A stretch of 64,000 nt of DNA from Escherichia phage RB43: sequence record NC_007023.1; one strand, given 5' to 3'. The translations under genes were made by a program, and so were the position numbers. Shown here piece after piece: positions 23,067 to 36,473 of this stretch; the stretch's first letter is position 1, and every line of letters begins with the position of its first letter. The notes below the pieces were generated by a model, which had not been told where the DNA came from, did no database searches, and saw nothing but the letters and a program-made list of their open reading frames with translations.

Positions 23067-23295
23067 AGAACTTCTCTTCTTCTCCGGTTTCAAGTTCGGC
23101 TTTGAGTTCTTCACGCCGTCCCTTGATCGCGTCACGCATTGAAATGTCATCGGATGCTGCAACTTCAACTTCCTTGACCCGCGTATTGTAATACTTTTCC
23201 AACTCTTTCAAACCGTCCAATGTACGGCACGAAGCAACTTTATTCATGAAATCATCAATTGCGGCTTCGTTAACGAATTCAGTAAAACTTTTCAT
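23065..23295 (-). CDS. uvsW.1: UvsW.1 (small protein encoded downstream of uvsW)
   Basis: 76 aa minus-strand ORF right after uvsW; good RBS AAGAGG; same size as T4 UvsW.1. Confidence 0.7.
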   Translation of the reverse strand: MKSFTEFVNEAAIDDFMNKVASCRTLDGLKELEKYYNTRVKEVEVAASDDISMRDAIKGRREELKAELETGEEEKF

Positions 23296-23304
23296 CTTAA
23301 CCTC

Positions 23305-24804
23305 TTAAATTTCTACCTGTTTGATCACGTAGTCGAATCGTTCTTCATTGTAGATCCGCACACGTTCCATAGCATGTTTCATGCCGTAGTTAGTTGCACT
23401 ATATTTATTTTTGGCTGTCTTCGACTTCGCCAGCGTTGCCAGGTTATCGACGATATCCCATACAGTAGCCAGCGCTTTCGAACCATGCTTACGCAACACG
23501 CGCCCGATCGACTGCTTAACAACAACGGCAGATTTGCAAGGGTGTGCAAAAATGATGTGATGCAGGTTCTTGATTGAAATACCTGTACTCAGTACCCCGA
23601 TCGAACCGATTACAATCAAACCCTTTGTTGATTCCGCAATCTTTTTCATTTCGTTGCGGTCGTCAATGTCCGTATCGCCGTTGATCAACACAACGTTGTC
23701 ATAAACCTTGCTCAACTTCTCGTACAGCCATTTTCCGTGTTCTTTATACCGGAACATCACGAATGTGTTTTCGTTCTTCTCACGGGCTAATTTAAGCGCT
23801 AATTTTAGAATCCATGCGTTGCGCCGTGTATGGCTTGTAACGTACTTGATTTCTGTCTGGTAGTCCGCACCTTTTAACTTCTTAACCTCTTCTTCTTTGT
23901 ATCGAAGAAAGATTGTGTTAATTTTCAGGTTGGTGACTTGTCCATCATCCATCAAACGACGCGTATCAACTGGTTTAAAGACTTTACCGAACGCACCGAT
24001 GTATTGCATCATGTTCGTTTTCCCTTCTTTCAGGGAACCGGATAACCCCAGTTTGAAAATGCACTGATCCATTGTGTCGATAATCTTTTTGATGCTCAAC
24101 CCTGTTGAGAGGTGGCATTCATCAACCATCAGGCACATGAACTGCTGGAACCACTCAGCAGGCATTTTAACCGCTGATTGCCAGGTTGAAACATAGATTA
24201 GCGCGTTGCTGTTCTTAGCAGTACCGGAACGAATACCCAGCATTGCCGATTTCGGAAACAGTCGATAGTTTGCGATGTCCTCGATCATTTGGTCAACCAG
24301 CGCCGTAGTTGGAACGATAATCAGCACTTTACCGCTGTAATGTTCCAGACACCAACGGGAGATAAGACCCTGAATCAGTGATTTACCCGCTGACGTTGGC
24401 AGGTTCAGAACACCTCGACGGTTTTTGATACCGTGGAATACGGATTCGCGTTGATACCAGTAAGGATCGATCTTTTTGTCGCCGTCATAAACTGGATGCT
24501 CGTTTACCCACTTGTCAAAATCTTCTTGCGTGATATCCTCTGTCTCGTGGATCTTCGGATCTACCCAGATTGAATACCCGCGCGATTCTGCGAATTTTGC
24601 TACCAGATAGGCTAATCCATACGGGAGTTTTCCGTTGTAGTCCATCAGGTAAATGTACCCGTTCCATCCACCATATTTGTACTTGTTTTGGTACTGATAG
24701 CCTGGAGGCTGGAATGAAAAATAGTCACGCAGTTCATAGACAATGTTTGCTTCTGCCTGAATCTGTACGTGGCTTGTGTTTAAATATTTGACTTCAATAT
24801 CCAC
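23305..24804 (-). CDS. uvsW: UvsW RNA-DNA and DNA helicase (apparent GTG start)
   Basis: 499 aa; LNLPTSAGKSLIQ, KVLIIVPTTAL, DECH, GSLKEGK.N.MQY, IGRVLRKHGSK.ATVWD match T4 UvsW; first codon is GTG. Confidence 0.9.
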   Translation of the reverse strand: MDIEVKYLNTSHVQIQAEANIVYELRDYFSFQPPGYQYQNKYKYGGWNGYIYLMDYNGKLPYGLAYLVAKFAESRGYSIWVDPKIHETEDITQEDFDKWVNEHPVYDGDKKIDPYWYQRESVFHGIKNRRGVLNLPTSAGKSLIQGLISRWCLEHYSGKVLIIVPTTALVDQMIEDIANYRLFPKSAMLGIRSGTAKNSNALIYVSTWQSAVKMPAEWFQQFMCLMVDECHLSTGLSIKKIIDTMDQCIFKLGLSGSLKEGKTNMMQYIGAFGKVFKPVDTRRLMDDGQVTNLKINTIFLRYKEEEVKKLKGADYQTEIKYVTSHTRRNAWILKLALKLAREKNENTFVMFRYKEHGKWLYEKLSKVYDNVVLINGDTDIDDRNEMKKIAESTKGLIVIGSIGVLSTGISIKNLHHIIFAHPCKSAVVVKQSIGRVLRKHGSKALATVWDIVDNLATLAKSKTAKNKYSATNYGMKHAMERVRIYNEERFDYVIKQVEI

Positions 24805-24875
24805 TATGATTACCCTATGTACAAAGTATATAGGTATTTATTGCCTAAATATTGAATAAACACTGGAGATAGACA

Positions 24876-25796
24876 ATGAAAATTGATTACGAATTGGTAG
24901 AAGGGTTCCGTGCTCTGCCTACTAAAGAACAGAAAGGCGCACTGGCTGACTACGCTCAAAGCACCTTTGAAGTAAAATTGAACAAACAAAAATCATTCGA
25001 TAACATGCTGGCTGATCTGGAAGCTGCTGTACCAGCGGAAGAAGAAAAACCGGAACTGCTGATTGATTCCCCAGAATCCGCGATCGTTTCGTACACTGGT
25101 AGCGTTGCAATGGATGAACCTGTTGTTAACGCTCCGAACATTCCTGATGTTGTTGTCGATGTGTCGCAGGACTTTATGGATTACGTCAAAGACGTTGCGC
25201 CGGAAGTGGCTGATCAGATTAAATTAGTCCCTGATGTTGTTGTCGATGTGTCGCAGGACTTTATGGATTACGTCAAAGACGTTGCGCCGGAAGTGGCTGA
25301 TCAGATTAAATTAGTCCCTGATGTTGTTGTCGATGTGTCGCAGGACTTTATGGATTACGTCAAAGACGTTGCGCCGGAAGTGGCTGATCAGATTAAATTA
25401 GTCCCTGATGTTGTTGTCGATGTGTCGCAGGACTTTATGGATTACGTCAAAGACGTTGCGCCGGAAGTGGCTGATCAGATTAAATTAGTCCCTGATGTTG
25501 TAGAAGCGTCTGTAACCGCTTCTGACGAGTCCAAAGCTGATATGGCATGGTTGGACGGGTTTAGCCCTACAATCGTTCTGATGGGGCGTAGCGCTCGTTC
25601 TAACGGCTATTATACGTGTCCCTGGTGGATCTACGATTGGATTAAGAAAAATCCAGATTGGTACAAAGATCCTGACCAGTGTCCACACTACAGCGCACGG
25701 GATACCCTGAAATCGCTGGTGTACTACATCAAACGTGATGGTCAAGTTACTGTGCGTGAAACGCGCAACAGCAGTTTCGATACCTTCAAATTTTAG
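24876..25796 (+). CDS. Hoc-like capsid decoration protein with C-terminal capsid-binding domain and internal 4 x 29-aa perfect tandem repeat
   Basis: C-terminal ...YYTCPWWIYDWIKKNPDWYKDPD...RDGQVTVRETRN resembles T4 Hoc capsid-binding domain (AYIWCGWWVMDEI...GKDW...DVQESRNGY) as recalled; location next to uvsW as for T4 hoc; RBS GGAGA. Confidence 0.6.
   Translation: MKIDYELVEGFRALPTKEQKGALADYAQSTFEVKLNKQKSFDNMLADLEAAVPAEEEKPELLIDSPESAIVSYTGSVAMDEPVVNAPNIPDVVVDVSQDFMDYVKDVAPEVADQIKLVPDVVVDVSQDFMDYVKDVAPEVADQIKLVPDVVVDVSQDFMDYVKDVAPEVADQIKLVPDVVVDVSQDFMDYVKDVAPEVADQIKLVPDVVEASVTASDESKADMAWLDGFSPTIVLMGRSARSNGYYTCPWWIYDWIKKNPDWYKDPDQCPHYSARDTLKSLVYYIKRDGQVTVRETRNSSFDTFKF
25143..25501 (+). repeat. 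perfect 87-bp direct tandem repeat, 4 full copies plus 11-bp partial, in-frame inside the Hoc-like gene
   Basis: Copies start at 25143, 25230, 25317, 25404; each encodes PDVVVDVSQDFMDYVKDVAPEVADQIKLV. Confidence 0.95.
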
Positions 25797-25896
25797 CACT
25801 TTTTGCTAAAAATCTGGTTGACTCGTACCCCGCTTTAAAGTATATTTGTACTCGAAGGCGGGGGAAAGGCTCTCGCAGTGAAAGAAGGAAAGCAAA

Positions 25897-26214
25897 ATGA
25901 AAAACGAAATGATGAAAAATGCTTATTATCCGGTTTTGTTTGTTTGGGGCGGGGAAAAAGTTAAAACTATCGTTAATTCACAAGCTCCGTATTACACTGT
26001 AGGTGAAGCACTTCGTCACGCCGCCGAAGCTGATTATCCGGTATCATTTGAACCTGGTTATGCTCGTTGGAACGGTTCTAAGTGGGTTGCTGATAGCTGG
26101 GACAACTACGAAGAATCAAGAATGGAACATGATCCTGATTATGTTTCTCGCCAGATGGAAGCGCACATGATTGCAGACCGTCGCCTCGATAATGAAGCTC
26201 GCGGATTCTGGTAA
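25897..26214 (+). CDS. hypothetical protein
   Basis: 105 aa ORF with RBS GAAGGAAAG; followed by hairpin terminator. Confidence 0.5.
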   Translation: MKNEMMKNAYYPVLFVWGGEKVKTIVNSQAPYYTVGEALRHAAEADYPVSFEPGYARWNGSKWVADSWDNYEESRMEHDPDYVSRQMEAHMIADRRLDNEARGFW

Positions 26215-26220
26215 AATTTA

Positions 26221-26243
26221 AGGGGGCGAAAGCCTCCTTTTTT
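26221..26243 (+). terminator. rho-independent terminator
   Basis: GGGGGCGAAAGCCTCC hairpin followed by TTTTTT. Confidence 0.5.
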
Positions 26244-26287
26244 ATAGGTGAATAATGAATAAATAAAATCATGAATGTCTGAAAGAT

Positions 26288-26824
26288 TTGTCAGATGGTA
26301 AAGAAATCGAGAACGTTATATTCCTCGATATTGACGGCGTGTTAAATAATATGCGCTCTATGAAATTCGGTGAACATATGGACATCGAATGTGCGCGACA
26401 TCTACGCCGGATCGTCAACCATGCAAATTGTGATATCGTTGTTTCTTCAACGTGGCGCATTGGGAACACGACACACACCCTACGCGAAATCCTGTACCCC
26501 TGGGGCTTGTATCGCGTTATCGGTCGAACCTGTAGCAACATGGTTGGTAATTGTGTGCGTGGTGATGAAATAAAGGCGTGGATCGATACGTTCGGATGTA
26601 AGAACTACATGATCCTTGATGATGATTGTGATATGTTGCCAGAACAAAAAGATCACTTCGTCAGAACAGATCCTGAAATCGGGCTTACCGAAGAACAATC
26701 AACCTTTGCGATCCGCAATATATTTGGAGTAACAACCCCGTTTTGTCCTGAATGCAACGGCTATGGGCGCGTGAACCAATACGATAAATGCGGTAGCTGT
26801 AACGGTAAAAAATTGCGTCTATAA
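26288..26824 (+). CDS. HAD-superfamily phosphatase with C-terminal Cys-rich zinc-ribbon (apparent TTG start)
   Basis: N-terminal FLDIDGVLN (HAD motif I), SSTWR, ILDDD motifs; C-terminal CPECNGYG...CGSCNGKK; no in-frame ATG upstream of motif I. Confidence 0.6.
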   Translation: MSDGKEIENVIFLDIDGVLNNMRSMKFGEHMDIECARHLRRIVNHANCDIVVSSTWRIGNTTHTLREILYPWGLYRVIGRTCSNMVGNCVRGDEIKAWIDTFGCKNYMILDDDCDMLPEQKDHFVRTDPEIGLTEEQSTFAIRNIFGVTTPFCPECNGYGRVNQYDKCGSCNGKKLRL

Positions 26825-26827
26825 ATA
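26820..26827 (+). promoter_or_regulatory. T4-type late promoter -10 box (TATAAATA) upstream of second Hoc-like gene
   Basis: Exact TATAAATA about 25 nt upstream of ATG 26852. Confidence 0.5.
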
Positions 26828-26851
26828 CAGAAAAACTAAGAGGTTTCAATA

Positions 26852-27355
26852 ATGGCTACTGAAAAATGGACTACGGTTCACCCTATCCCGTGGCGTAACA
26901 CCAGCTTTACCTATCTTCCGTGGTGGATCTATGATATCATCGTTGCTGCTAATACGGCAGGTGGAGATTGGCGTGATTACGCAGAAGAAAAATATGCGAA
27001 AGAATTCGTCACGCTGAAACAAGCATACATCGACTAGACCGATGTTGATTTCATCGAATCTCGCAACGGCTACCTGTACAAACTCAGTGATTTTACTCCG
27101 GCTGATCCGGTTGTTACTATCACCCCGAAAACTGCCCCTGCTGATTTTAAAGTAGGCGATCCTGACCTTGCTGCAACCGATCTGTTTACTATCGATCCGA
27201 GCGGTACGGCTATGACTCTGACTGTGGATTCCTCTGGTCATGCGTCGATCGTTGGCGGTAAACTCCATGCTATAAGCGCTGGTGATGTTGTTGTAACGGC
27301 GACCTCCGGTTCTGTTACTGCAAACCTGACTGTAAATGTTAAAGTTGCTCCATAA
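26852..27355 (+). CDS. second Hoc-like gene: N-terminal capsid-binding domain interrupted by in-frame TAG (27035-27037), then Big_2-type Ig-like domain
   Basis: ATG 26852 to TAG gives 61 aa (VHPIPWRNTSFTYLPWWIYDII...GGDW...); same frame stays open to TAA 27353-27355 encoding ...FIESRNGYLYKL... plus Big_2-like domain; homology to Hoc spans the TAG. Confidence 0.5.
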
Positions 27356-27370
27356 CTAAGAAGGTAAAAC

Positions 27371-27871
27371 ATGCTTCTATTCGAATTCAATGATGTATTC
27401 GCGAAGTTTAGTGATGCAATTCAGGCAAAATTCGGCAAACGTCCCGAAAACATGACAGAAACAGAATACAATACTGCTGTTTCGTCCCTGGTTCGTACAG
27501 ATTTCTATGAAAAGCTGGCGATCGAGGTGTTGGGCTGGGACATGATGAAATGGGGTATGACTTATCGCGATCGCGAAGTTGGTTTCATTCTCGTCAATGA
27601 GGTTAAAAGCCCTCTGTGGGTAAACAACCAAAAAGTTGCATACATGGATAAGGTGTGTGCGGAAATGGGTATTGTGCGTCTGGATTTCTGGACGTGTAAG
27701 GATCTGAATGAACTGAAAGGTCATGCTTATCGTTGCCCTCTGATTTCTCGCAATGAGAAACATCGTCAAGCATGGGATAGCGCTGGCAAGTATCGCAGTG
27801 TATATCTGAATGATGACATGAACATCACTATTCAGGATGTGAACCGCGCCTTTGCGGATTACACACCATAA
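27371..27871 (+). CDS. hypothetical protein
   Basis: 166 aa ORF, RBS AAGAAGG, followed by terminator. Confidence 0.55.
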   Translation: MLLFEFNDVFAKFSDAIQAKFGKRPENMTETEYNTAVSSLVRTDFYEKLAIEVLGWDMMKWGMTYRDREVGFILVNEVKSPLWVNNQKVAYMDKVCAEMGIVRLDFWTCKDLNELKGHAYRCPLISRNEKHRQAWDSAGKYRSVYLNDDMNITIQDVNRAFADYTP

Positions 27872-27878
27872 ACAAAAA

Positions 27879-27906
27879 AGGGAACCGCAATGGTTCCCTT
27901 TCTTTT
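27879..27906. terminator. bidirectional rho-independent terminator
   Basis: GGGAACCGCAATGGTTCCC hairpin flanked by A-run and T-run; between convergent genes. Confidence 0.7.
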
Positions 27907-28367
27907 TACAGCTTTCTAACTTCTTTCAACGCTTCTTCTTTGCTACCAACGAAGAGGATCGCTTTTCCTCCCGCTTTCCTGAAAGGTAGTACCGCTTTCG
28001 CTCTGTCATCGAACAGTACACCCTGACCTGCATAGGCTGCTTTTTCGCCGCTGCTTTTGGTGTAGTGGAATTCAGGCAGATATCCTAACAGTTTAACAAG
28101 CGCTTTGCGTTTTTGTTCTGCAACTTCTTCGGAATTGTATTTACCGACACTGGTCAAGATCGCAACCTCGCCTAATGTTCTCATATGGCAGAACAGCGCA
28201 ACACCTTCTTCAATCGGTTTTAAATTTTCGTAGAAGTCGGTTTTAGATATTGCCTCTTTTGCCTTTTTGAGTTCATCCTGTGGCATTCTTGCTGGATCAC
28301 CATACATCGGTATGAAAGAACCTTCCCAATCAAACAGTACACCATCCATATCAAAGAAAAATTTCAT
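27906..28367 (-). CDS. HAD-family phosphatase, 5'(3')-deoxyribonucleotidase-like
   Basis: Starts MKFFFDMDGVLFDW (HAD motif I of the 5'-nucleotidase type); ...VLFDDR... near C-terminus; RBS GAGGAA. Confidence 0.6.
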   Translation of the reverse strand: MKFFFDMDGVLFDWEGSFIPMYGDPARMPQDELKKAKEAISKTDFYENLKPIEEGVALFCHMRTLGEVAILTSVGKYNSEEVAEQKRKALVKLLGYLPEFHYTKSSGEKAAYAGQGVLFDDRAKAVLPFRKAGGKAILFVGSKEEALKEVRKL

Positions 28368-28416
28368 ATCAATTCCTCGCTTTGTGTGTGCATCATATTC
28401 ATATATGTTCTCATTG

Positions 28417-29250
28417 TCAACCCCATGTATCGGTTTTGGGTGCGTATGCTGCAACTTTAGCAACCAATTCCTTATCAAGCTGGTCAATAGATTTCTGTGC
28501 TTTACCTTTTGACTTAACTTTGATGTAGTTAGACTTGACAACAAACATACCGCCTTTGTCAGATTTTTTGATCTCGCTATCGATACCAACTTTGTTAAAG
28601 CTGATCCAGATATCACCATCCATATACTGTTTCAGTGAATCGCCCATGTTCAGGATCTTAGCCATAGTAAGAGCGGCCCCTTCGTGGGTATCCATGAGGA
28701 TCTCTTTAGGAACCACACGGTCACGTTTCAGGTTCTGCTGCATAGCAATATGAACATCGTTCATTACCCAAACGATATGGATGTTTTCTTTATGGTATCC
28801 CAGCGTTTCAACGTCACGGGCAATGCTTGCCAGCTTGCTCATGCTTTTTAGGGTAACGTCGAAAATCAGGTTTGGTTTGCGGTCTTCTGGTGCTGCTGCA
28901 ATACCAGCATAAACACGCGCCTGGTTTTTGTTGGATACGTTGAAAACGTCTGCGATCACATGATGCAGGGTTGCCACGTTATCCGGGTTTTTCAGGTTCA
29001 TGGTTTTAACATCATGACCAGTTTTAGCTTTGATTTCTGCCGCCAGTTTGGTGCTACCCATTACCAGCTTTTTCAGTGCGTCAACGTCCAGTGTGATTCC
29101 TTCGATACCTAACAGTTTTTCGAGGGTAAAACCTTTACCGGAACCCGCACCGCCAGCCAGGATCACAACCTGACCAAATTTAGGATATGCCTTGCCGCCA
29201 AACGTAATCAACGCTTCGTCAAGGGATACAAAGTCTTTGAATGATTTCAT
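28417..29250 (-). CDS. P-loop NTPase, putative nucleotide/nucleoside kinase
   Basis: Walker A VVILAGGAGSGKGF; hydrophobic-D Walker B-like LIFDVT; 277 aa; RBS GGAG; immediately upstream of the HAD nucleotidase. Confidence 0.5.
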   Translation of the reverse strand: MKSFKDFVSLDEALITFGGKAYPKFGQVVILAGGAGSGKGFTLEKLLGIEGITLDVDALKKLVMGSTKLAAEIKAKTGHDVKTMNLKNPDNVATLHHVIADVFNVSNKNQARVYAGIAAAPEDRKPNLIFDVTLKSMSKLASIARDVETLGYHKENIHIVWVMNDVHIAMQQNLKRDRVVPKEILMDTHEGAALTMAKILNMGDSLKQYMDGDIWISFNKVGIDSEIKKSDKGGMFVVKSNYIKVKSKGKAQKSIDQLDKELVAKVAAYAPKTDTWG

Positions 29251-29362
29251 CTTAGAACTCCAGGGTTATTTTAATATATTTATTGACACCGTTTATTGGT
29301 TGGGTTTATAGTGAAGTTGTTCGACGGATAAGCCGGAAGAACTTAACCATAAGGTAAACATC

Positions 29363-30283
29363 ATGAAACTTGAATTAAACCGCTTCATCAAAGCCGCTGC
29401 TGCTGGCGACCAGTCAAAATACAAATCCCGTCGCGATACCCTGATTGACGATTTCTGTAATCTGCTGGGGTTCAAGCGCTGGCATACTCCGTCTATGCGT
29501 CCAGACTGTGATCCAAAATGGGATTACTTCAAATGGACTCCCCGCGATCGTGGTTATGTCGATAACGTCCGCGTAATGACATTCACTCATATGTACGCAA
29601 ATGCAATAATAGAAGTTGCCAAACGTAATAATTCTACGTACCCGAACGGGTGGAAGGTTGCAGAAGTCATTGAAACCCTGATGCAACTGCGCCGTGAATA
29701 TAAAGCTGGAATGATGATGCAACTGCGCCGTGAATATAAAGCTGGAATGATACGTAAATTGGAAGAACAATCCGAAAGACATGAATATAAAGAATGGTCT
29801 ATCGTCGCAAAATATCTGCTGAACATCACCTATTCGGTTTTCTGTCGCTTCGGAACAAAAGAAATCGGGTTCGGTTCTCATGATATCATTGCAGAAGCCC
29901 GTCATCGCCTGACATACGCGATCCTGAAAATTCAAAATTCCGGTGGTCTTGTTCTGGCTGCATTCTGTGATGAAATTGTGTACTACGGCGATCAGGTTGA
30001 AGTTGAAGGTGTTCACCACGAAAAATTCAACAAACTTGTGTTCGGACAATATAACAGCTATTCATACGGAAACGATATCCGCGTGATGATGCACCCGCGT
30101 ATTATGCTGGATATGGAAGGGTGGGAACCTGGACACGGGATCGGTGATATCGAAAGCCAGCGTGAACGCCGTGTTCGTTCTGTCGCAAAAGCTCGCGAAT
30201 TGATGACGGGTAGCCTTACTGATTACCTGTTCAGAACAAAAGAAGACGTTGAAAAAGAATTTGTTGACTTGTCGGGCGAATAG
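29363..30283 (+). CDS. hypothetical protein (contains 12-aa in-frame tandem duplication)
   Basis: 306 aa ORF; LMQLRREYKAGM duplicated. Confidence 0.55.
   Translation: MKLELNRFIKAAAAGDQSKYKSRRDTLIDDFCNLLGFKRWHTPSMRPDCDPKWDYFKWTPRDRGYVDNVRVMTFTHMYANAIIEVAKRNNSTYPNGWKVAEVIETLMQLRREYKAGMMMQLRREYKAGMIRKLEEQSERHEYKEWSIVAKYLLNITYSVFCRFGTKEIGFGSHDIIAEARHRLTYAILKIQNSGGLVLAAFCDEIVYYGDQVEVEGVHHEKFNKLVFGQYNSYSYGNDIRVMMHPRIMLDMEGWEPGHGIGDIESQRERRVRSVAKARELMTGSLTDYLFRTKEDVEKEFVDLSGE
29681..29752 (+). repeat. 36-bp direct tandem duplication (2 copies)
   Basis: ATGCAACTGCGCCGTGAATATAAAGCTGGAATG repeated with 36-bp period. Confidence 0.9.
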
Positions 30284-30350
30284 CGATAAGCTGTAATCAC
30301 TGAAAACAAGGAGATAACCATGAATACCATTCACTGCCGCAAAGAGTTCG

Positions 30351-30638
30351 TTGAGTTCTATCACGGATCATGTACTGCTGCCGGAATCGAAAGGCATGTT
30401 GTTACCTCCTTGTGCGTCTGAAACTCTGTCAGAGAAAGGCAGAAAGAAAAACTTAGACCGTGTTTTCTTCACCGCTGATATAGGTTTAGCCCGTATCTAT
30501 GCTGGAAGGGCTGCACGGTCAATCGGTGGTGATCCGGTACTGTATCGGGTTGTGTGTCCAGTTGACGCGGTATGTATGAACGACGACAAAGGCGCGAGTG
30601 TTTATCATGCTGCATGGGCTTTTTGTGAGGAAATATAA
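30351..30638 (+). CDS. hypothetical protein (TTG start in ORF track; alternative ATG at 30396)
   Basis: 95-aa ORF; overlaps a 33-codon ATG-initiated ORF (30320-30421) in another frame; start uncertain. Confidence 0.35.
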   Translation: MSSITDHVLLPESKGMLLPPCASETLSEKGRKKNLDRVFFTADIGLARIYAGRAARSIGGDPVLYRVVCPVDAVCMNDDKGASVYHAAWAFCEEI

Positions 30639-30775
30639 TGGAAATTTTGGTTCCTTTACTTGTTATTATGTTTATCGTGGTTTGGGTTATTGGTCCACTC
30701 ATTTTCATAGGTTATATCCTTTCAGAACACCAAAAATTTAACGAATGTTTGCGAAAAGGAATAAAATATGAATGA
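30638..30775 (+). CDS. small hydrophobic (membrane) protein, 45 aa
   Basis: ATG overlaps upstream stop (TAATG); translation MEILVPLLVIMFIVVWVIGPLIFIGYIL... is a single TM helix. Confidence 0.35.
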   Translation: MEILVPLLVIMFIVVWVIGPLIFIGYILSEHQKFNECLRKGIKYE

Positions 30776-30935
30776 TCGTGTTTTAGCAATTCTCGTTTTC
30801 CTTCTGGGGTATCGGGTTGAGGTGTTCGGTGGACACATGATGCTTAATGGTGACTTGACCGCAATTTGGATGGTTGCTGTTGGTGTTATGTTCACTTTCT
30901 TATCATTTGCGATTGTCAACGAGGCTACCCAATGA
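30768..30935 (+). CDS. small hydrophobic (membrane) protein, 55 aa
   Basis: ATG overlaps previous ORF; MNDRVLAILVFLLGY...IWMVAVGVMFTFLSFAIV two hydrophobic segments. Confidence 0.35.
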   Translation: MNDRVLAILVFLLGYRVEVFGGHMMLNGDLTAIWMVAVGVMFTFLSFAIVNEATQ

Positions 30936-31258
30936 AACTATTTCATGTAGTGTATAGCGGTATGGTTAATGTTGATGTTCCCTTGCTTTCCGTCGAAACG
31001 ATTGATACACTCGAAGGGAAGATCGGAAAACGTTTTAAAACTACCGTATCCGAAATCAGTACGGTGTTTGTTGACCATCCGTCAGATCTGGAAAATTTAA
31101 TCAACACTCTCGATGATTTACAAATCCCGTTTGCGGAAATTTTTCATCATCAATCGGGGCTGTATCTGATTGTGACATTTGTTCTAAAAAATGTTGACAG
31201 CAGAAATCCAGAAGTGCTAGATTTTATCCGTAACATTGATTCAAACAAAGGAAAGTGA
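30932..31258 (+). CDS. hypothetical protein
   Basis: 108 aa from ATG overlapping previous stop (ATGA); ORF track gives longer TTG-initiated version from 30866. Confidence 0.5.
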   Translation: MKLFHVVYSGMVNVDVPLLSVETIDTLEGKIGKRFKTTVSEISTVFVDHPSDLENLINTLDDLQIPFAEIFHHQSGLYLIVTFVLKNVDSRNPEVLDFIRNIDSNKGK

Positions 31259-31260
31259 TT

Positions 31261-31599
31261 ATGAAAATCGTTCAGCGTAATATCAGCGAAGTTAGCCAGG
31301 AAGAAAAAGTTCAGATCCATTTCAAATTCAATGATCTGAAACGTGGTTATGCAGAAATTGCCCGTGTTCATAAGTTGGACAATGGCGACATTTATATGAT
31401 TGTCCAAGAAATTGAACGAATCCGCGCTTTCCGTGCCGAAAACCCGAAAGTAAAACGTGTTCTTCGTCGTGTGTATGTGAATAAACATCGTAAGGCTGCG
31501 AAACCAGTTAAACCAAAACGCGAACCGCGTCCAGACAACAAACGCAAAGCAATTAACGGTGCTATGGCGCTGGCTTTCCAGGAAGCAGGTTTAGTGTAA
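31261..31599 (+). CDS. hypothetical protein with basic C-terminus
   Basis: ATG 31261 with RBS AAGGAAAG; Lys/Arg-rich tail (KHRKAAKPVKPKREPRPDNKRK). Confidence 0.5.
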   Translation: MKIVQRNISEVSQEEKVQIHFKFNDLKRGYAEIARVHKLDNGDIYMIVQEIERIRAFRAENPKVKRVLRRVYVNKHRKAAKPVKPKREPRPDNKRKAINGAMALAFQEAGLV

Positions 31600-31608
31600 G
31601 GGGTTAAC

Positions 31609-32136
31609 ATGAGTCGTAGAAATATGGAACGCTGGAATACTATTGTAACCAGCAGTATCAAACCAGTTGCGCCAGCGTTCAAGGAAGTTGTAGAAGAAAC
31701 TCCAGTTAAAACACAGACTGTTGTATCTTTGTGTGAAGAAGATTTAGAGCACCGTCGCCGTGCGAATCAAATTGAATTCGATCTGCGTATTGCCCGTTCA
31801 TACAACAGTAAAAACGATGATGCGCGTAGCCGTAACCTGCAATTTGCTCTTACGTTGAGCGATTGGACTGTGTTAATGAGTCAAACTACTTGTGCGTATT
31901 CCGGTAAGGTGTTTAGCACTCGCGGAGACAGCCCGAACTCTCGAACGATGGAACGTATTAACCCGATGTTGGGTTATACCCCAGAAAACACGATCGCAGT
32001 GACAAAAGCCGCTAACAGTGAAAAATCATCACTTGATGCGTTCATGAAGGGTTCTGTAATCCTTCCTGAAGTAAAACTGAAATTGTTACGCAAAGCCGCG
32101 TACCAAATTGAAAAACAATTGAAAATTAAAGGTTAA
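31609..32136 (+). CDS. hypothetical protein (possible degenerate HNH / His-Me-finger-like motif)
   Basis: 175 aa; ...CAYSGKVF...MERINPMLGYTPENTIAVTKAANSEK loosely resembles HNH core; weak. Confidence 0.45.
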   Translation: MSRRNMERWNTIVTSSIKPVAPAFKEVVEETPVKTQTVVSLCEEDLEHRRRANQIEFDLRIARSYNSKNDDARSRNLQFALTLSDWTVLMSQTTCAYSGKVFSTRGDSPNSRTMERINPMLGYTPENTIAVTKAANSEKSSLDAFMKGSVILPEVKLKLLRKAAYQIEKQLKIKG

Positions 32137-32140
32137 TATT

Positions 32141-33184
32141 ATGTTTGTGAAATATTCTTCTCTTACGAACCATTATGAAGGTAAATTCATCAATGGTGTG
32201 ATCATGAATGGTTTGACGGGCGGTGTGTGGGTTGCTCGTGAAAAGATCCACGGTGCTAACTTTAGTCTGATTACTTCTGACGGCGAAAGGGTTATTCCGG
32301 CAAAGCGTAGCGGTGAAATCCTTCCTACTGAACAGTTTTACGGTTGCGAACCTGTTGTTGCCCGATATGCCCCAGCAATCCGCAAACTGTGGGATGTCAT
32401 CAATACCGCACAACAGGTTAGCGGGATTTACGTTGATTCTCTGGTAATTCAGGTGTATGGTGAATTTGCGGGGCGCGGTGTTCAGAAAGATGTTGATTAC
32501 GGTGAAAAAGATTTCTACGTGTTCGATATCCGCGTAAATGGTAAATTCCTGCATGATAACATCGTTGCGGTGTATGCAAAAACTGTTGGCTTGAAAATGG
32601 CCCCGCTGTTAGCATACGGTACTTTTGACGAGATCCGAGCACTTCCGATCACGTTTGATTCAGTGGTTAACCTGGCGAACTCCGGCGCGATTCCTGCACA
32701 TAACGGGGTTGAACCTGAATTCAAAAACTTCATGACGCTGAAAGATGGTGAAGGTGAGAACATCGCAGAAGGTTTTGTTATGAAGCCCGTACACCCTGCT
32801 TTCATGCCGAACGGTGAACGTGTTGCAATTAAATGCAAAACGACGAAGTTTAGCGAGAAGAAAAACAAACAAGCGAACCGCTTCAATGCTCCGGCTGAAC
32901 TGTCGGAAAATGATAAAGTTAAACTGGATGTGTTCACCTGCTACCTGACAGAAAACCGCGTTAAAAACGTCCTGTCTAAAATTGACAGCACGAACCTTAC
33001 CGCGAAAGACTTCGGTCGCGTCATGGGGCTGACTGTACAGGATGCTCTTGAAGAAATCGAACGCAACTACGGACCGTTTATCGAACAGTTTGAAAACCCG
33101 ACGCTGGCGAAGAAAACTTTCACCAACGAAGCCTCAAGCCTGATTCGTACAAACTGGGGCGCAATCCTGAACAATGAATTTTAA
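32141..33184 (+). CDS. rnlB: RNA ligase 2 (RnlB)
   Basis: 347 aa; N-terminus ...KYSSL.NHY..KFI......GLTGG.WVAREKIHG.NFSLI (nucleotidyltransferase Lys motif) and ...KPVHPAFMPNGERVAIKCK..KFSEKK... match T4 Rnl2. Confidence 0.9.
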   Translation: MFVKYSSLTNHYEGKFINGVIMNGLTGGVWVAREKIHGANFSLITSDGERVIPAKRSGEILPTEQFYGCEPVVARYAPAIRKLWDVINTAQQVSGIYVDSLVIQVYGEFAGRGVQKDVDYGEKDFYVFDIRVNGKFLHDNIVAVYAKTVGLKMAPLLAYGTFDEIRALPITFDSVVNLANSGAIPAHNGVEPEFKNFMTLKDGEGENIAEGFVMKPVHPAFMPNGERVAIKCKTTKFSEKKNKQANRFNAPAELSENDKVKLDVFTCYLTENRVKNVLSKIDSTNLTAKDFGRVMGLTVQDALEEIERNYGPFIEQFENPTLAKKTFTNEASSLIRTNWGAILNNEF

Positions 33185-33322
33185 AACTGTTCTCGAAAAC
33201 GCAAAAACGGCTACCCTGATCGGTAGCCGTGAACCCCCCGAACGTATAGCAAACATCGCTATCAAGATCGGACGGCATTAAGTGATCGAGACATTTTAGC
33301 TTATTCTGGTGGTGCTCCTGGA

Positions 33323-33757
33323 ATGGATAGCCATTTCTTGTTTGACTACGCACCAGAAAGACGGCGCATAATTCTCCCTGAAAACGGTTTTAACGGGCTT
33401 TACTCGAATGGTATGGATATCATCGACTATAACGAGTTAGACACGTACAAAGCCGCTGACGAAGCGAGAAAGGTAGCTGGGAACTTCGATTACCAAAATG
33501 AATGGACACAAAGGCGTTATGCGAGAAATGCAGTTCAGATATTGCGCGAAAATTTAGACAGCCCGACTGACTTCGTGTTATTTTGGGCTATCGAAAAGGA
33601 TTTTTGTGTCAAGGGCGGTACGGCTATCGCAACACGCCTTGCACGATTATACGGTGTTCCCAGTTTCAACCTGTGGAAAGAAAACGTATTGAATGATGTT
33701 TGTGATACTTTGGGGATTAATATCAAACCTCCAACTTTGGATTTTCTCTGGTGCTAA
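33323..33757 (+). CDS. SLOG/DprA-like Rossmann-fold protein, 3' portion (conserved 5' part lies in another frame from ATG 33174)
   Basis: ORF from ATG 33323; same frame is open from 33233 (..LAYSGGAPGMDSH); ATG 33174 ORF (MNFKTVLENAKTATLIGSREPP...) ends 33281; together resemble GSR...SGGAxGxD pattern; assignment tentative. Confidence 0.4.
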   Translation: MDSHFLFDYAPERRRIILPENGFNGLYSNGMDIIDYNELDTYKAADEARKVAGNFDYQNEWTQRRYARNAVQILRENLDSPTDFVLFWAIEKDFCVKGGTAIATRLARLYGVPSFNLWKENVLNDVCDTLGINIKPPTLDFLWC

Positions 33758-33823
33758 CTCCCGAACAATCACGTAATTACGAACGCCTCTCAGTTGAAGA
33801 GGCACTTAAAAAGGTTAAGAACA

Positions 33824-34027
33824 ATGGTAGAGATCAACGGAATCGGGGTGAACCCGAACGCATTAATTTCAAAGAACGATCCTCGTTGCGGTCGTAGTCC
33901 TACGCTGGCAGAACGTGCGCGTAAGCTGGTAGAGGAAACAAACGGCAAGATGTTTGAAACATGCCGTGAAGAAATCACCCGCAACATTCTAAGTTTTCCA
34001 ACAAAACAATCATACACGTTGATATGA
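33824..34027 (+). CDS. hypothetical protein
   Basis: 67 aa from ATG 33824 (ORF track has upstream alternative start 33794). Confidence 0.4.
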   Translation: MVEINGIGVNPNALISKNDPRCGRSPTLAERARKLVEETNGKMFETCREEITRNILSFPTKQSYTLI

Positions 34028-34245
34028 AACGTTTTGTTGGTACGACGATGGGGCAAGAATGCACCAAACGTGCGTTTGATATGATCGGGGAATGGCTGAC
34101 CGAAGAAGGTTTAACCTATGAAACCCAAGCGGTAAGAACGTCTGCCGCAATACAATATGCAATGAGTAACCGCCGTATTTCAGGAAACGCCCCTGTAACT
34201 GAAAGAACTGGGTATAGCGAATACACGTATTTCATCACCTGGTAA
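34024..34245 (+). CDS. hypothetical protein
   Basis: 73 aa ORF with ATGA overlap to upstream ORF. Confidence 0.45.
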   Translation: MKRFVGTTMGQECTKRAFDMIGEWLTEEGLTYETQAVRTSAAIQYAMSNRRISGNAPVTERTGYSEYTYFITW

Positions 34246-34264
34246 AAAAGTTTGAAATAGTTGT

Positions 34265-34291
34265 TGACGGGAGTTCTGATTATGATAAGAT
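34265..34291 (+). promoter_or_regulatory. putative sigma70-type early promoter
   Basis: TTGACG, 15-nt spacer, TAAGAT; same TTCTGAT..TAAGAT architecture recurs at 45641-45668. Confidence 0.35.
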
Positions 34292-34332
34292 AGCTCCCGT
34301 AGACAAGACAACTAACCCAGAAGGAAAACATC

Positions 34333-34590
34333 ATGGAAATCAAATTAATCCCTACTTGCGCTGGTTACTGCTTGGCACTGAACGGTGTAGCAAACAACGG
34401 CAAAGGCTTACGGGCTAACGTTGAAGCAATGCTGAATGAACTGGCGTTGCGGAGTGAACCTGGGATGCAGTATGAGTATGATGACGTTGCAACCAGCGTT
34501 AAAATCTCTAATCTGGTGATGAATGGTGTTGACTGTGCGGGTGGTGGGATTGCTACATCGACTATGCAGACAATCGGGTTTTCTTACTGA
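34333..34590 (+). CDS. hypothetical protein
   Basis: 85 aa ORF with RBS AAGGAAAAC. Confidence 0.5.
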   Translation: MEIKLIPTCAGYCLALNGVANNGKGLRANVEAMLNELALRSEPGMQYEYDDVATSVKISNLVMNGVDCAGGGIATSTMQTIGFSY

Positions 34591-34619
34591 CCAGCAACTA
34601 AGGAATGTTATGAAAGATT

Positions 34620-35020
34620 ATATTTCAGAAGCAGAAGCGCTTGAAGAAAGCGGTTTTCAAGTCACCATTGACGATGAAGAAGATGGTGGCTATGATGGCG
34701 GTGTTATGTGGGGGCTTAAACGTCCACAACGTAAAACCCCTGTTCAATATTCTGATGGTTCAGTAAGATACGAAACGGTTGTTAAAGAAGTAAACGGGCG
34801 CGTCATTACGTCCGAACGGCAGAAGGACATTAAACAATTGTATGATGTCGCAAAAGCCGCTAAAGTAGGAACCGAGATTGTTTGTCCGGTGTGCAAAGAG
34901 AAACACAAGAAGACGACCTATCATAAGGTGTTCTGCTCTAATGGCAAAAAATCCAGGAAAGACTGCAAGAGTAAATACTGGAACACGATTCATCCTGAAC
35001 GTTTGGATCGTATCTTTTAA
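34620..35020 (+). CDS. hypothetical protein with CxxC motif
   Basis: 133 aa from ATG 34620 (RBS AAGGAA); CPVCKEK...C; ORF track has longer GTG/TTG version from 34523. Confidence 0.5.
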
Positions 35021-35042
35021 TCAAAACGTGGAGTACGTTTAA

Positions 35043-36473
35043 ATGCAAACTTTTAATGAACTGAATAGCATCATCACCTCAACCGATTCCTACAAAGTGT
35101 CTCACTGGATGCAGTATCCGCAAGGCACTGATGCAGCGATGTTCTATATCGAATCTCGCGGTGGTAAATTTGATGAAGTAGTAACCGCTGGCGTTAACTA
35201 CGTTGCGCGGGTTCTCGCTGAACCAATTACCATGAAGCAGGTTGAGTTAGCGCGGGTACTTTACCGTAAACACTTCGGAAAAGAGATCTTTAACTACGAA
35301 GGGTGGAAAAAGATTGCTGAACTGGGTTACACCCCTGTAATTTTCCGTGCGATCCCAGAAGGTACGGTGTTCCGGGAAAAATGCCGTGCGACTGTGTACG
35401 CCGAAAACGAATTCTCGTGGCTGGCTGGGTGGCTGGAGACAATGACGATTCGCGGTATTTGGTATCCGTCATCTGTAGCAACGCTATCGCGTGAGTGTAA
35501 AAAGGTTCTGGCACACTACCTGGATATGACTTCTGACCTTACTGGCGAAGCATATAACATCACACTGGGTACACGTCTGCATGATTTTGGGGCGCGGGGC
35601 GCGACCTCTGCTGAATCTGCTGGCATTGGTGGGCTGGCACACCTTTATAACTTCATCGGCACTGATACCGTAGAAGGGATGATTATGGCAATCAGCCTCT
35701 TTGCGGATTATCAAACACTGTTTGATGAAGTTGAAAACGTAGAAGTAGCTGGGGTTTCCATCCCTGCTCGTGAGCATTCAACTACGATTTCCTACGGTAA
35801 AGAAAACGAAGACGAAGCATATAAAAACAGCATTGAAATGTTCGGTGATGGGTTCTACGCTTGCGTATACGATTCATGGGACTACAAAGCCGCTGTTGAC
35901 CGGATCGATAGTTATAAAGAGAAAATCATTGCATCTGGCGGTGTGTTGGTAGTGCGTCCAGACTCAGGGGATATGATAGACAACATCATGTACACCTTGC
36001 GCAAACTGGGGCAAATCTTCGGATATACTGTCAACTCCAAAGGGTACAAAGTTCTTCATAACTCTGTTCGTATCATCCAGGGTGACGAGATCCACGGGCC
36101 TGAAACAATCAACCGTGTATTAAGCTGGATGGAAGCGAACAAATGGTCGAGCGAAAACATTGCGTTCGGTATGGGTGGCGGTTTGCTGCAAGAAGTTACC
36201 CGCGATACCCAGAAATATGCTGAAAAACTTTGCGCTATCCGTATCAACGGTGTGTGGAAAGGCGTTTACAAATGCCCGAAAGGTTCGGAATGGAAAAAGA
36301 GCAAGAAAGGTTTATTGATGACCATCACTAACGGGATGGAATTCAAGACAATCGATTCTCTCGAAGAATCTATTCCTGCTGGGTGGTTTGATGCGATGGT
36401 AACTTATTATGACAATGGTTATCTGAACAAAACTGACACTTTAGGGGAAATTCGTGAGCGTAGCCGGATTTAA
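35043..36473 (+). CDS. nadV: nicotinamide phosphoribosyltransferase (NadV/NAMPT family)
   Basis: 476 aa; N-terminal ...TDSYKVSHW...YPQGT..., GTRLHDFGARGATS, IRPDSGD, RIIQGDEI, FGMGGGLLQ motifs typical of NAMPT/NAPRTase family. Confidence 0.8.
   Translation: MQTFNELNSIITSTDSYKVSHWMQYPQGTDAAMFYIESRGGKFDEVVTAGVNYVARVLAEPITMKQVELARVLYRKHFGKEIFNYEGWKKIAELGYTPVIFRAIPEGTVFREKCRATVYAENEFSWLAGWLETMTIRGIWYPSSVATLSRECKKVLAHYLDMTSDLTGEAYNITLGTRLHDFGARGATSAESAGIGGLAHLYNFIGTDTVEGMIMAISLFADYQTLFDEVENVEVAGVSIPAREHSTTISYGKENEDEAYKNSIEMFGDGFYACVYDSWDYKAAVDRIDSYKEKIIASGGVLVVRPDSGDMIDNIMYTLRKLGQIFGYTVNSKGYKVLHNSVRIIQGDEIHGPETINRVLSWMEANKWSSENIAFGMGGGLLQEVTRDTQKYAEKLCAIRINGVWKGVYKCPKGSEWKKSKKGLLMTITNGMEFKTIDSLEESIPAGWFDAMVTYYDNGYLNKTDTLGEIRERSRI

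Follow-up and report, generated by a model that had tools for sequence, protein, structure and literature searches.

A gene of Escherichia phage RB43 carries the same 36 bp twice in direct succession, which raises the question of whether the repeat is genuine, how recently it arose, and what it does to the protein. We addressed this in a window of the RB43 genome, the 64,000-nucleotide stretch of record NC_007023.1 that was analysed as a whole. Tandem Repeats Finder and direct reading both gave one array at 29679-29751 (period 36, 2.0 copies, 100% matches, 0 indels), one of the three tandem arrays that the program found in the window, and the exact periodic run at the repeat is 73 bp. In the stretch 29640-29760, ATGCAACTGCGCCGTGAATATAAAGCTGGAATG is present twice with an ATG between. 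In the codon register, the final base is the sole difference between the two copies; the unit length is divisible by 3 and the repeat is in frame within the 306-aa ORF. By chance, 64 kb should contain approximately 64000 x 4^-36 = 1e-17 perfect adjacent repeats of 36 bp. The original prediction, made from the sequence alone, had given the coordinates, sequence, encoded peptide (MQLRREYKAGM) and gene length correctly, as confirmed by direct reading, Tandem Repeats Finder and the ORF list. The RB43 repeat is a real, recent in-frame 36-bp tandem duplication.

Table 1. Positions of the duplication, of the gene that contains it and of related features (window coordinates unless a contig is named).
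Feature	Position	Strand	Description
RB43ORF242w	29363-30283	+	306 aa; stand-alone family-B DNA-polymerase-like palm + fingers protein, phrog_7439
Promoter-like site	29283-29312	+	sigma-70-type TTGACA-18-TATAGT; 11/12 consensus, ~50 bp upstream of start codon
Motif A-like strand + helix	29555-29602	+	aa 65-80, YVDNVRVMTFTHMYAN; position of the catalytic Asp is Thr73
Fingers helix 1	29657-29740	+	aa 99-126 in model; R-x-x-x-K twice: R110/K114, R122/K126
Repeat copy 1	29681-29716	+	codons 107-118, MQLRREYKAGMM
Repeat copy 2	29717-29752	+	codons 119-130, MQLRREYKAGMI; the inserted extra 12 residues
Hypervariable fingers-tip cassette	29705-29791	+	aa 115-143; at least 4 unalignable or length-variant forms
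Fingers helix 2	29783-29851	+	motif B-like KYLLNITYS; K150, N154, Y157
Motif C-like beta-hairpin	29948-29986	+	aa 196-208, LVLAAFCDEIVYY; D203 is the second Asp of PolB DTD
P0006	contig ERZ28812121 NODE_2802, locus L005:3340-4266		metagenomic homologue with doubled unit

The gene product, named RB43ORF242w after a GenBank note in phage GAP161 (hereafter ORF242w), had no match in Pfam (E <= 1), NCBIfam or PADLOC. In PHROGs it matches a family of unknown function (E = 5e-157), in two stretches that the variable region separates. The description of the product as a protein of unknown function therefore agrees with the annotation, but it can be improved, since the structure model and Foldseek identify a homologue of the palm and fingers of family-B DNA polymerases (PolBs). 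The AlphaFold2 model, built on a 21-sequence alignment, was confident (pLDDT 86.5, pTM 0.82). Foldseek returned 111 matches in the PDB at E <= 0.001, of which the best 50 were all family-B DNA polymerases (top E = 1.6e-6). Sequence evidence was obtained independently of the model. A family HMM found only 27 proteins at E <= 0.001 among 1.84 billion representatives, and three among the weakest of these (P0043, P0044 and P0045; E = 3e-4 to 8e-4) are true PolBs by Pfam. With hhalign, the family profile matched P0045 with a probability of 95.8% and E = 6.5e-9, the PolB alignment starting just before motif A; at the sequence level, only the family profile detects the homology. The family profile found only an insignificant match to RNA ligase 2 (E = 0.55) among PDB chain sequences. 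These results indicate that ORF242w has the PolB fold and is a stand-alone homologue of the PolB palm and fingers. Uncharacterised proteins (~240-345 aa) of Klebsiella phage PMBT1, Aeromonas phages phiAS4 and 65.2, and Vibrio phage VAP7 share this small fold; the BFVD matches with this fold are A0A1G4GQI8, E1A1E4, A0A219YCA8 and A0A4Y5TX97. A limited search of open-access text found no description of the family, and RB43's own gp43, sought for comparison, is not within the 64-kb window.

The motifs of the protein bear on its activity. In the hhalign alignment, motif A VAVFDFESLYPN aligned to VRVMTFTHMYAN, with the catalytic Asp replaced by Thr73, and LLEMRRKAK of fingers helix 1 aligned to LMQLRREYK. 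Motif B KIIANALYG aligned to KYLLNITYS, which places Y157 at the motif Tyr, and YGDTDS of motif C aligned to AFCDE, in which the first Asp is gone and only the second is kept. In an extended alignment of 25 sequences, reaching down to 16-20% identity, only K150, D203 and H218 are invariant; conservation is at least 90% at L106, R110, K114, N154 and Y207, and none of the 25 sequences has an Asp at the motif A position. In RB69 gp43, the equivalents R482, K486, K560 and N564 grip the incoming dNTP by its triphosphate, and the metal-binding residues are D411 and D623. The ORF242w family thus keeps the triphosphate-side residues (R-x-x-x-K and the motif B K and N) and one motif C aspartate. Of the features of an active family-B polymerase, ORF242w has the fold, motif B and R-x-x-x-K; it lacks the motif A aspartate and the two-Asp motif C, does not match Pfam PF00136 (DNA_pol_B) or PF03104, and with 306 aa has no 3'-5' exonuclease or N-terminal domain. 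Since the motif A catalytic Asp is missing, ORF242w is probably catalytically dead as a canonical polymerase, while nucleotide or primer-terminus binding by the family is plausible. The conserved D48, E204, H218 and H219 could in principle compensate for the missing aspartate. We therefore regard ORF242w, in which the nucleotide-binding residues are strongly conserved, as a candidate pseudo-polymerase or non-canonical nucleotidyltransferase.

Comparison with known polymerases sets the family apart. True PolBs include RB69 and T4 gp43, phi29 polymerase and archaeal PolB; in contrast, members of the ORF242w family have only ~290-306 aa and very short fingers, and have their own invariant or near-invariant H218, H219, RPDxDP block and PNGW. 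H218 is family-specific, and we know of no PolB counterpart. Inactivated PolB derivatives are considerably larger and retain the PolB domain set, whereas ORF242w is a minimal palm and fingers module, present in T4-like and some other phages. Passages in the reports on an archaeal family (PMC2527604), the C-terminal half of Pol epsilon (PMC2669801) and chordopoxvirus F12 (PMC4304020) describe inactivated PolBs that, like ORF242w, have substituted catalytic carboxylates and are still conserved. Conservation despite these substitutions implies a non-polymerase role for them. The primer-independent PolBs (piPolBs) keep the motif A Asp and an exonuclease domain; ORF242w, in contrast, has neither. 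Like ORF242w, piPolB is without the first Asp of motif C, and a passage in one report describes such a piPolB as active (PMC7544198), so that the loss of this residue alone is not decisive.

Our survey of homologues placed the duplication in time. Of the phage records, 44 cover at least 80% of the gene, and all but 2 RB43 records show a break or gap at this point. A junction-spanning peptide searched against 50,697 phage records found the doubled form in the two RB43 records only. The closest relatives, the metagenomic proteins P0003 and P0004 (294 aa; loci L006-L009), show 94.7-95.7% nucleotide identity to RB43 and have one copy, followed by a linker homologous to that of RB43 (MQLRREYKAGMILKWEEQSEKHKYKEWS versus ...AGMIRKLEEQSERHEYKEWS in RB43). 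The Pseudotevenvirus homologues that we fetched (EC-W2, Maroon and GAP161; 289 aa) have MQLRREYK followed by a different, shorter segment, SAYRVNPNPIYN. Neither P0003 and P0004 nor any other Pseudotevenvirus homologue examined has copy 2. Six further contigs, encoding proteins of ~41% identity, likewise have the unit once, and a search by unit pattern for further duplicated alleles in viral and metagenome contigs found single-copy genes only. The original prediction had called the duplication recent and proposed a comparison of copy number in homologues. The identity of the two copies, and the single copy with the same downstream sequence in the nearest relatives, bear this out. The prediction had not noted that the duplication adjoins a hypervariable cassette, nor that a distant homologue, described below, also has the unit doubled. 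Since the nearest relatives are single-copy, the single copy is ancestral and the RB43 duplication recent and lineage-specific.

The 12 residues that were duplicated include R-x-x-x-K and sit in helix 1 of the fingers hairpin, immediately ahead of the tip. In the RB43 model, helix 1 (99-126) is followed by a 14-residue loop (127-140) and helix 2 (141-163), with a pLDDT of 57 for residues 131-140. In the model of the single-copy protein P0003, helix 1 (99-119) and helix 2 (124-151) are joined by a turn of 4 residues (120-123), and no 10-residue block of the tip region falls under pLDDT 78. According to these models, the extra 12 residues extend helix 1 by ~7 residues and loosen the tip, turning the 4-residue turn into a predicted 14-residue floppy loop. 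Both helices are anchored in the palm and the flanks of the duplication are unaltered, so that R110/K114 of copy 1 should still lie opposite K150/N154, in the native position, and R122/K126 of copy 2 would project at the tip; this placement follows from sequence anchoring and secondary structure only.

The duplication adjoins a hypervariable tip cassette. Among genes that are 92-96% identical elsewhere, the tip takes at least four forms: the one found in EC-W2, Maroon and GAP161; AGMILKWEEQSEKHKYK; the RB43 form; and AGAKMKFNEIREVWEENPERNNYK, with a 7-aa insertion at the same site. P0002 (L010:2215-3120) and P0007 have a 7-aa insertion, AKMKFNE or AKMKWNE, exactly at the RB43 duplication site. 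The start of the fingers tip is thereby marked as a recurrent insertion site. Since the tip is the least constrained part of the protein and the only one to vary freely in length and sequence among close relatives, the insertion in RB43 is probably tolerated. We consider it likely that the best explanation of the locus combines a recent RB43 duplication, a PolB-like protein and a tolerated lengthening of the tip.

The surroundings of the gene are conserved. In relatives, the neighbourhood keeps a Hoc-like capsid-decoration gene on the upstream side, with Srd-like and RNA ligase 2 genes on the downstream side. Divergently from ORF242w, at 28417-29250(-), lies the gene for a P-loop protein of 277 aa that matches Zeta_toxin (Pfam E = 2.7e-7), and this gene is syntenic with ORF242w in every relative examined. 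An antisense 211-aa ORF at 29414-30049(-) was given no weight, as it comes from a mechanical ORF list and the plus-strand gene is conserved across relatives. The ATG of ORF242w is preceded by an AAGG Shine-Dalgarno sequence, and the promoter-like site, which is a consensus match only, suggests early expression; the total of such sites across the region is not above the shuffled expectation.

A second doubling was found in a distant homologue. The metagenomic protein P0006 (308 aa) also reads MQLRREYKAGM-F-MQLRREYKAGM, and Tandem Repeats Finder gave an array at this locus with a period of 36, 2.3 copies and 91% matches. The duplication junctions of RB43 and L005 lie 0-2 nt apart. The two L005 copies differ from each other at 1/36 positions, and each differs from each RB43 copy at 6/36 positions; four of the changes are synonymous (CTG/TTG, CGT/CGC, GCT/GCG and GGA/GGG), and each is present in both L005 copies. 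Since the L005 copies match each other and differ from those of RB43 at four synonymous sites, the L005 doubling would be an independent second event. Recent exchange of the doubled segment between these two genomes was rejected because the units differ at 6/36 positions, four of them synonymous, which resembles the gene-wide divergence. The most parsimonious reading is that the same 12 codons were apparently duplicated twice, independently, in RB43 and in L005.

In the RB43 lineage, the event was a single, recent 36-bp in-frame tandem duplication after the split from the closest known relatives. Replication slippage or unequal recombination probably caused it, with almost no homology at the junction (1 nt). 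In L005 the junction microhomology amounts to 3 nt. We also sought a hotspot hairpin by folding the duplicated region and the single-copy homologue as single-stranded DNA; the folds were no stabler than shuffled controls (z scores +1.9, +1.7 and -0.6), and neither folding nor junction homology revealed a mutational hotspot. A 4-nt TGAT repeat of the single-copy form was rejected as the cause, as its spacing is 33 nt and not 36. The event is an ordinary, routine kind of mutation at an exposed hypervariable hairpin tip.

The duplication itself leaves the current view of phage biology unchanged. It points, however, to a conserved, unannotated minimal PolB palm and fingers module. What lifts it slightly beyond the routine is the apparent independent doubling in a distant homologue and the nature of the protein, an apparently undescribed, aspartate-deficient mini-PolB in which the duplicated motif is the conserved nucleotide-binding R-x-x-x-K. 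The apparently recurrent 12-codon doubling and the cassette-like variation mark the fingers tip as an evolvable surface.

Another perfect in-frame tandem repeat lies 4 kb away in the same genome. At 25143-25501, within an ORF at ~24876-25796(+), a homologue of inh contains an 87-bp repeat of 4.1 copies, a 29-aa unit four times over; inh encodes a minor capsid protein, an inhibitor of the prohead protease. RB43-GVA (HE981739) has a single copy of the repeat unit where the window has 4. RB16 matches inh only from query position 268 on and apparently also has fewer copies. Either the copy number changed between laboratory stocks of RB43, or one of the assemblies collapsed or expanded the repeat. 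Unlike this 87-bp array of 4 copies, whose number varies between RB43 stocks or assemblies, the 36-bp duplication is constant in all RB43 records. Together, the two repeats show that gain and loss of in-frame tandem repeats are active in RB43.

The tolerated lengthening favoured above may be set against an adaptive origin, in which the tip is an interaction surface under diversifying selection, and its lengthening or the doubling of R-x-x-x-K was selected in parallel. The two doublings of the unit have different junctions, neither a hairpin nor useful microhomology points to a hotspot, the tip is hypervariable in genes otherwise 92-96% identical and has a 7-aa insertion in another lineage, and the duplication has been stably kept in laboratory stocks, all of which speak for selection. 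However, the number of cases is only two, relaxed constraint would equally permit in-frame insertions where a hairpin tip is exposed, and most relatives are fine with a short tip. We therefore consider an adaptive origin unlikely. A fuller version would place ORF242w in an undescribed family of early-expressed, aspartate-deficient "mini-PolB" proteins that bind a nucleotide or primer terminus, with the tip under selection and the parallel R-x-x-x-K doubling adaptive; the tip would then serve, for example, as an interface with a host or defence factor. This combination, the interface included, is a distinctly improbable one.

The reading of two independent gains also has to be weighed against a single old duplication in the common ancestor of RB43 and L005, homogenised by concerted evolution through array expansion and contraction and lost elsewhere. 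The doubling of the same 12 codons in both genomes would fit such a history, as would the changing copy number of arrays in RB43, exemplified by the inh repeat. In the gene distance matrix, however, the L005 gene takes the outgroup position, with ~78-80% identity to the rest (79.8% to RB43), and the sampled lineages that lie closer to RB43 all have one copy (L006, L007, L010, EC-W2, Maroon and GAP161), so that several losses would be required. The four synonymous differences present in both copies would in addition require repeated homogenisation, and the linkers downstream of the repeat are unrelated in RB43 and L005. An old, homogenised duplication needs more events than two independent gains, and we regard it as rather improbable.

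The RB43 records themselves bear on the copy number. The gene is 100% identical in two Pseudotevenvirus RB43 records, HE981739 and HE858210, both of RB43-GVA, which was maintained in Geneva, separate from the Toulouse stock, for ~20 years (PMC3157838). The identical 306-aa protein appears under AAX78764.1, YP_239218.1, CCK74085.1 and CCL97702.1, four accessions that come from at least two sequencing projects, and in 3 contigs, the longest of 180,500 bp. A hypothetical single-copy RB43 protein of 294 aa is absent from a collection of 15 billion proteins. Over 23102-36279 (~13 kb), the window and RB43-GVA differ by a 261-bp change in repeat number, 4 SNPs and 7 one-base indels and are thus distinct assemblies. 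The duplication is stable in separately kept laboratory stocks, the copy number resting on agreement between assemblies; since all RB43 stocks come from one isolate, this agreement shows stability and the absence of a stutter, and is silent on natural frequency. Short perfect tandem repeats can be mis-assembled, and the window has probable one-base errors elsewhere, but the alternative raised in the original prediction, an assembly or sequencing stutter in a truly single-copy genome, is extremely unlikely and effectively excluded, because separate assemblies of diverged, separately propagated stocks agree exactly, Sanger or modern reads greatly exceed the 36-bp unit in length and hence span it, and an independent metagenome assembly (L005) has the doubling in a different background with 1 mismatch between the copies.

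The SNPs between the window and RB43-GVA lie at 26265, 27009, 27037 and 28280. Six of the one-base indels are single T residues missing from the window within ~2 kb (33274, 34018, 34541, 35367, 35375 and 35386). At 30393 the window has an extra G relative to RB43-GVA, which causes a frameshift in a 105-aa gene directly downstream of ORF242w (~30320-30638(+)). This gene is an intact 318-nt ORF in RB43-GVA, EC-W2, Maroon, GAP161, L005, L006 and L010, and the extra G is probably a sequencing error in the source record, or else a real frameshift.
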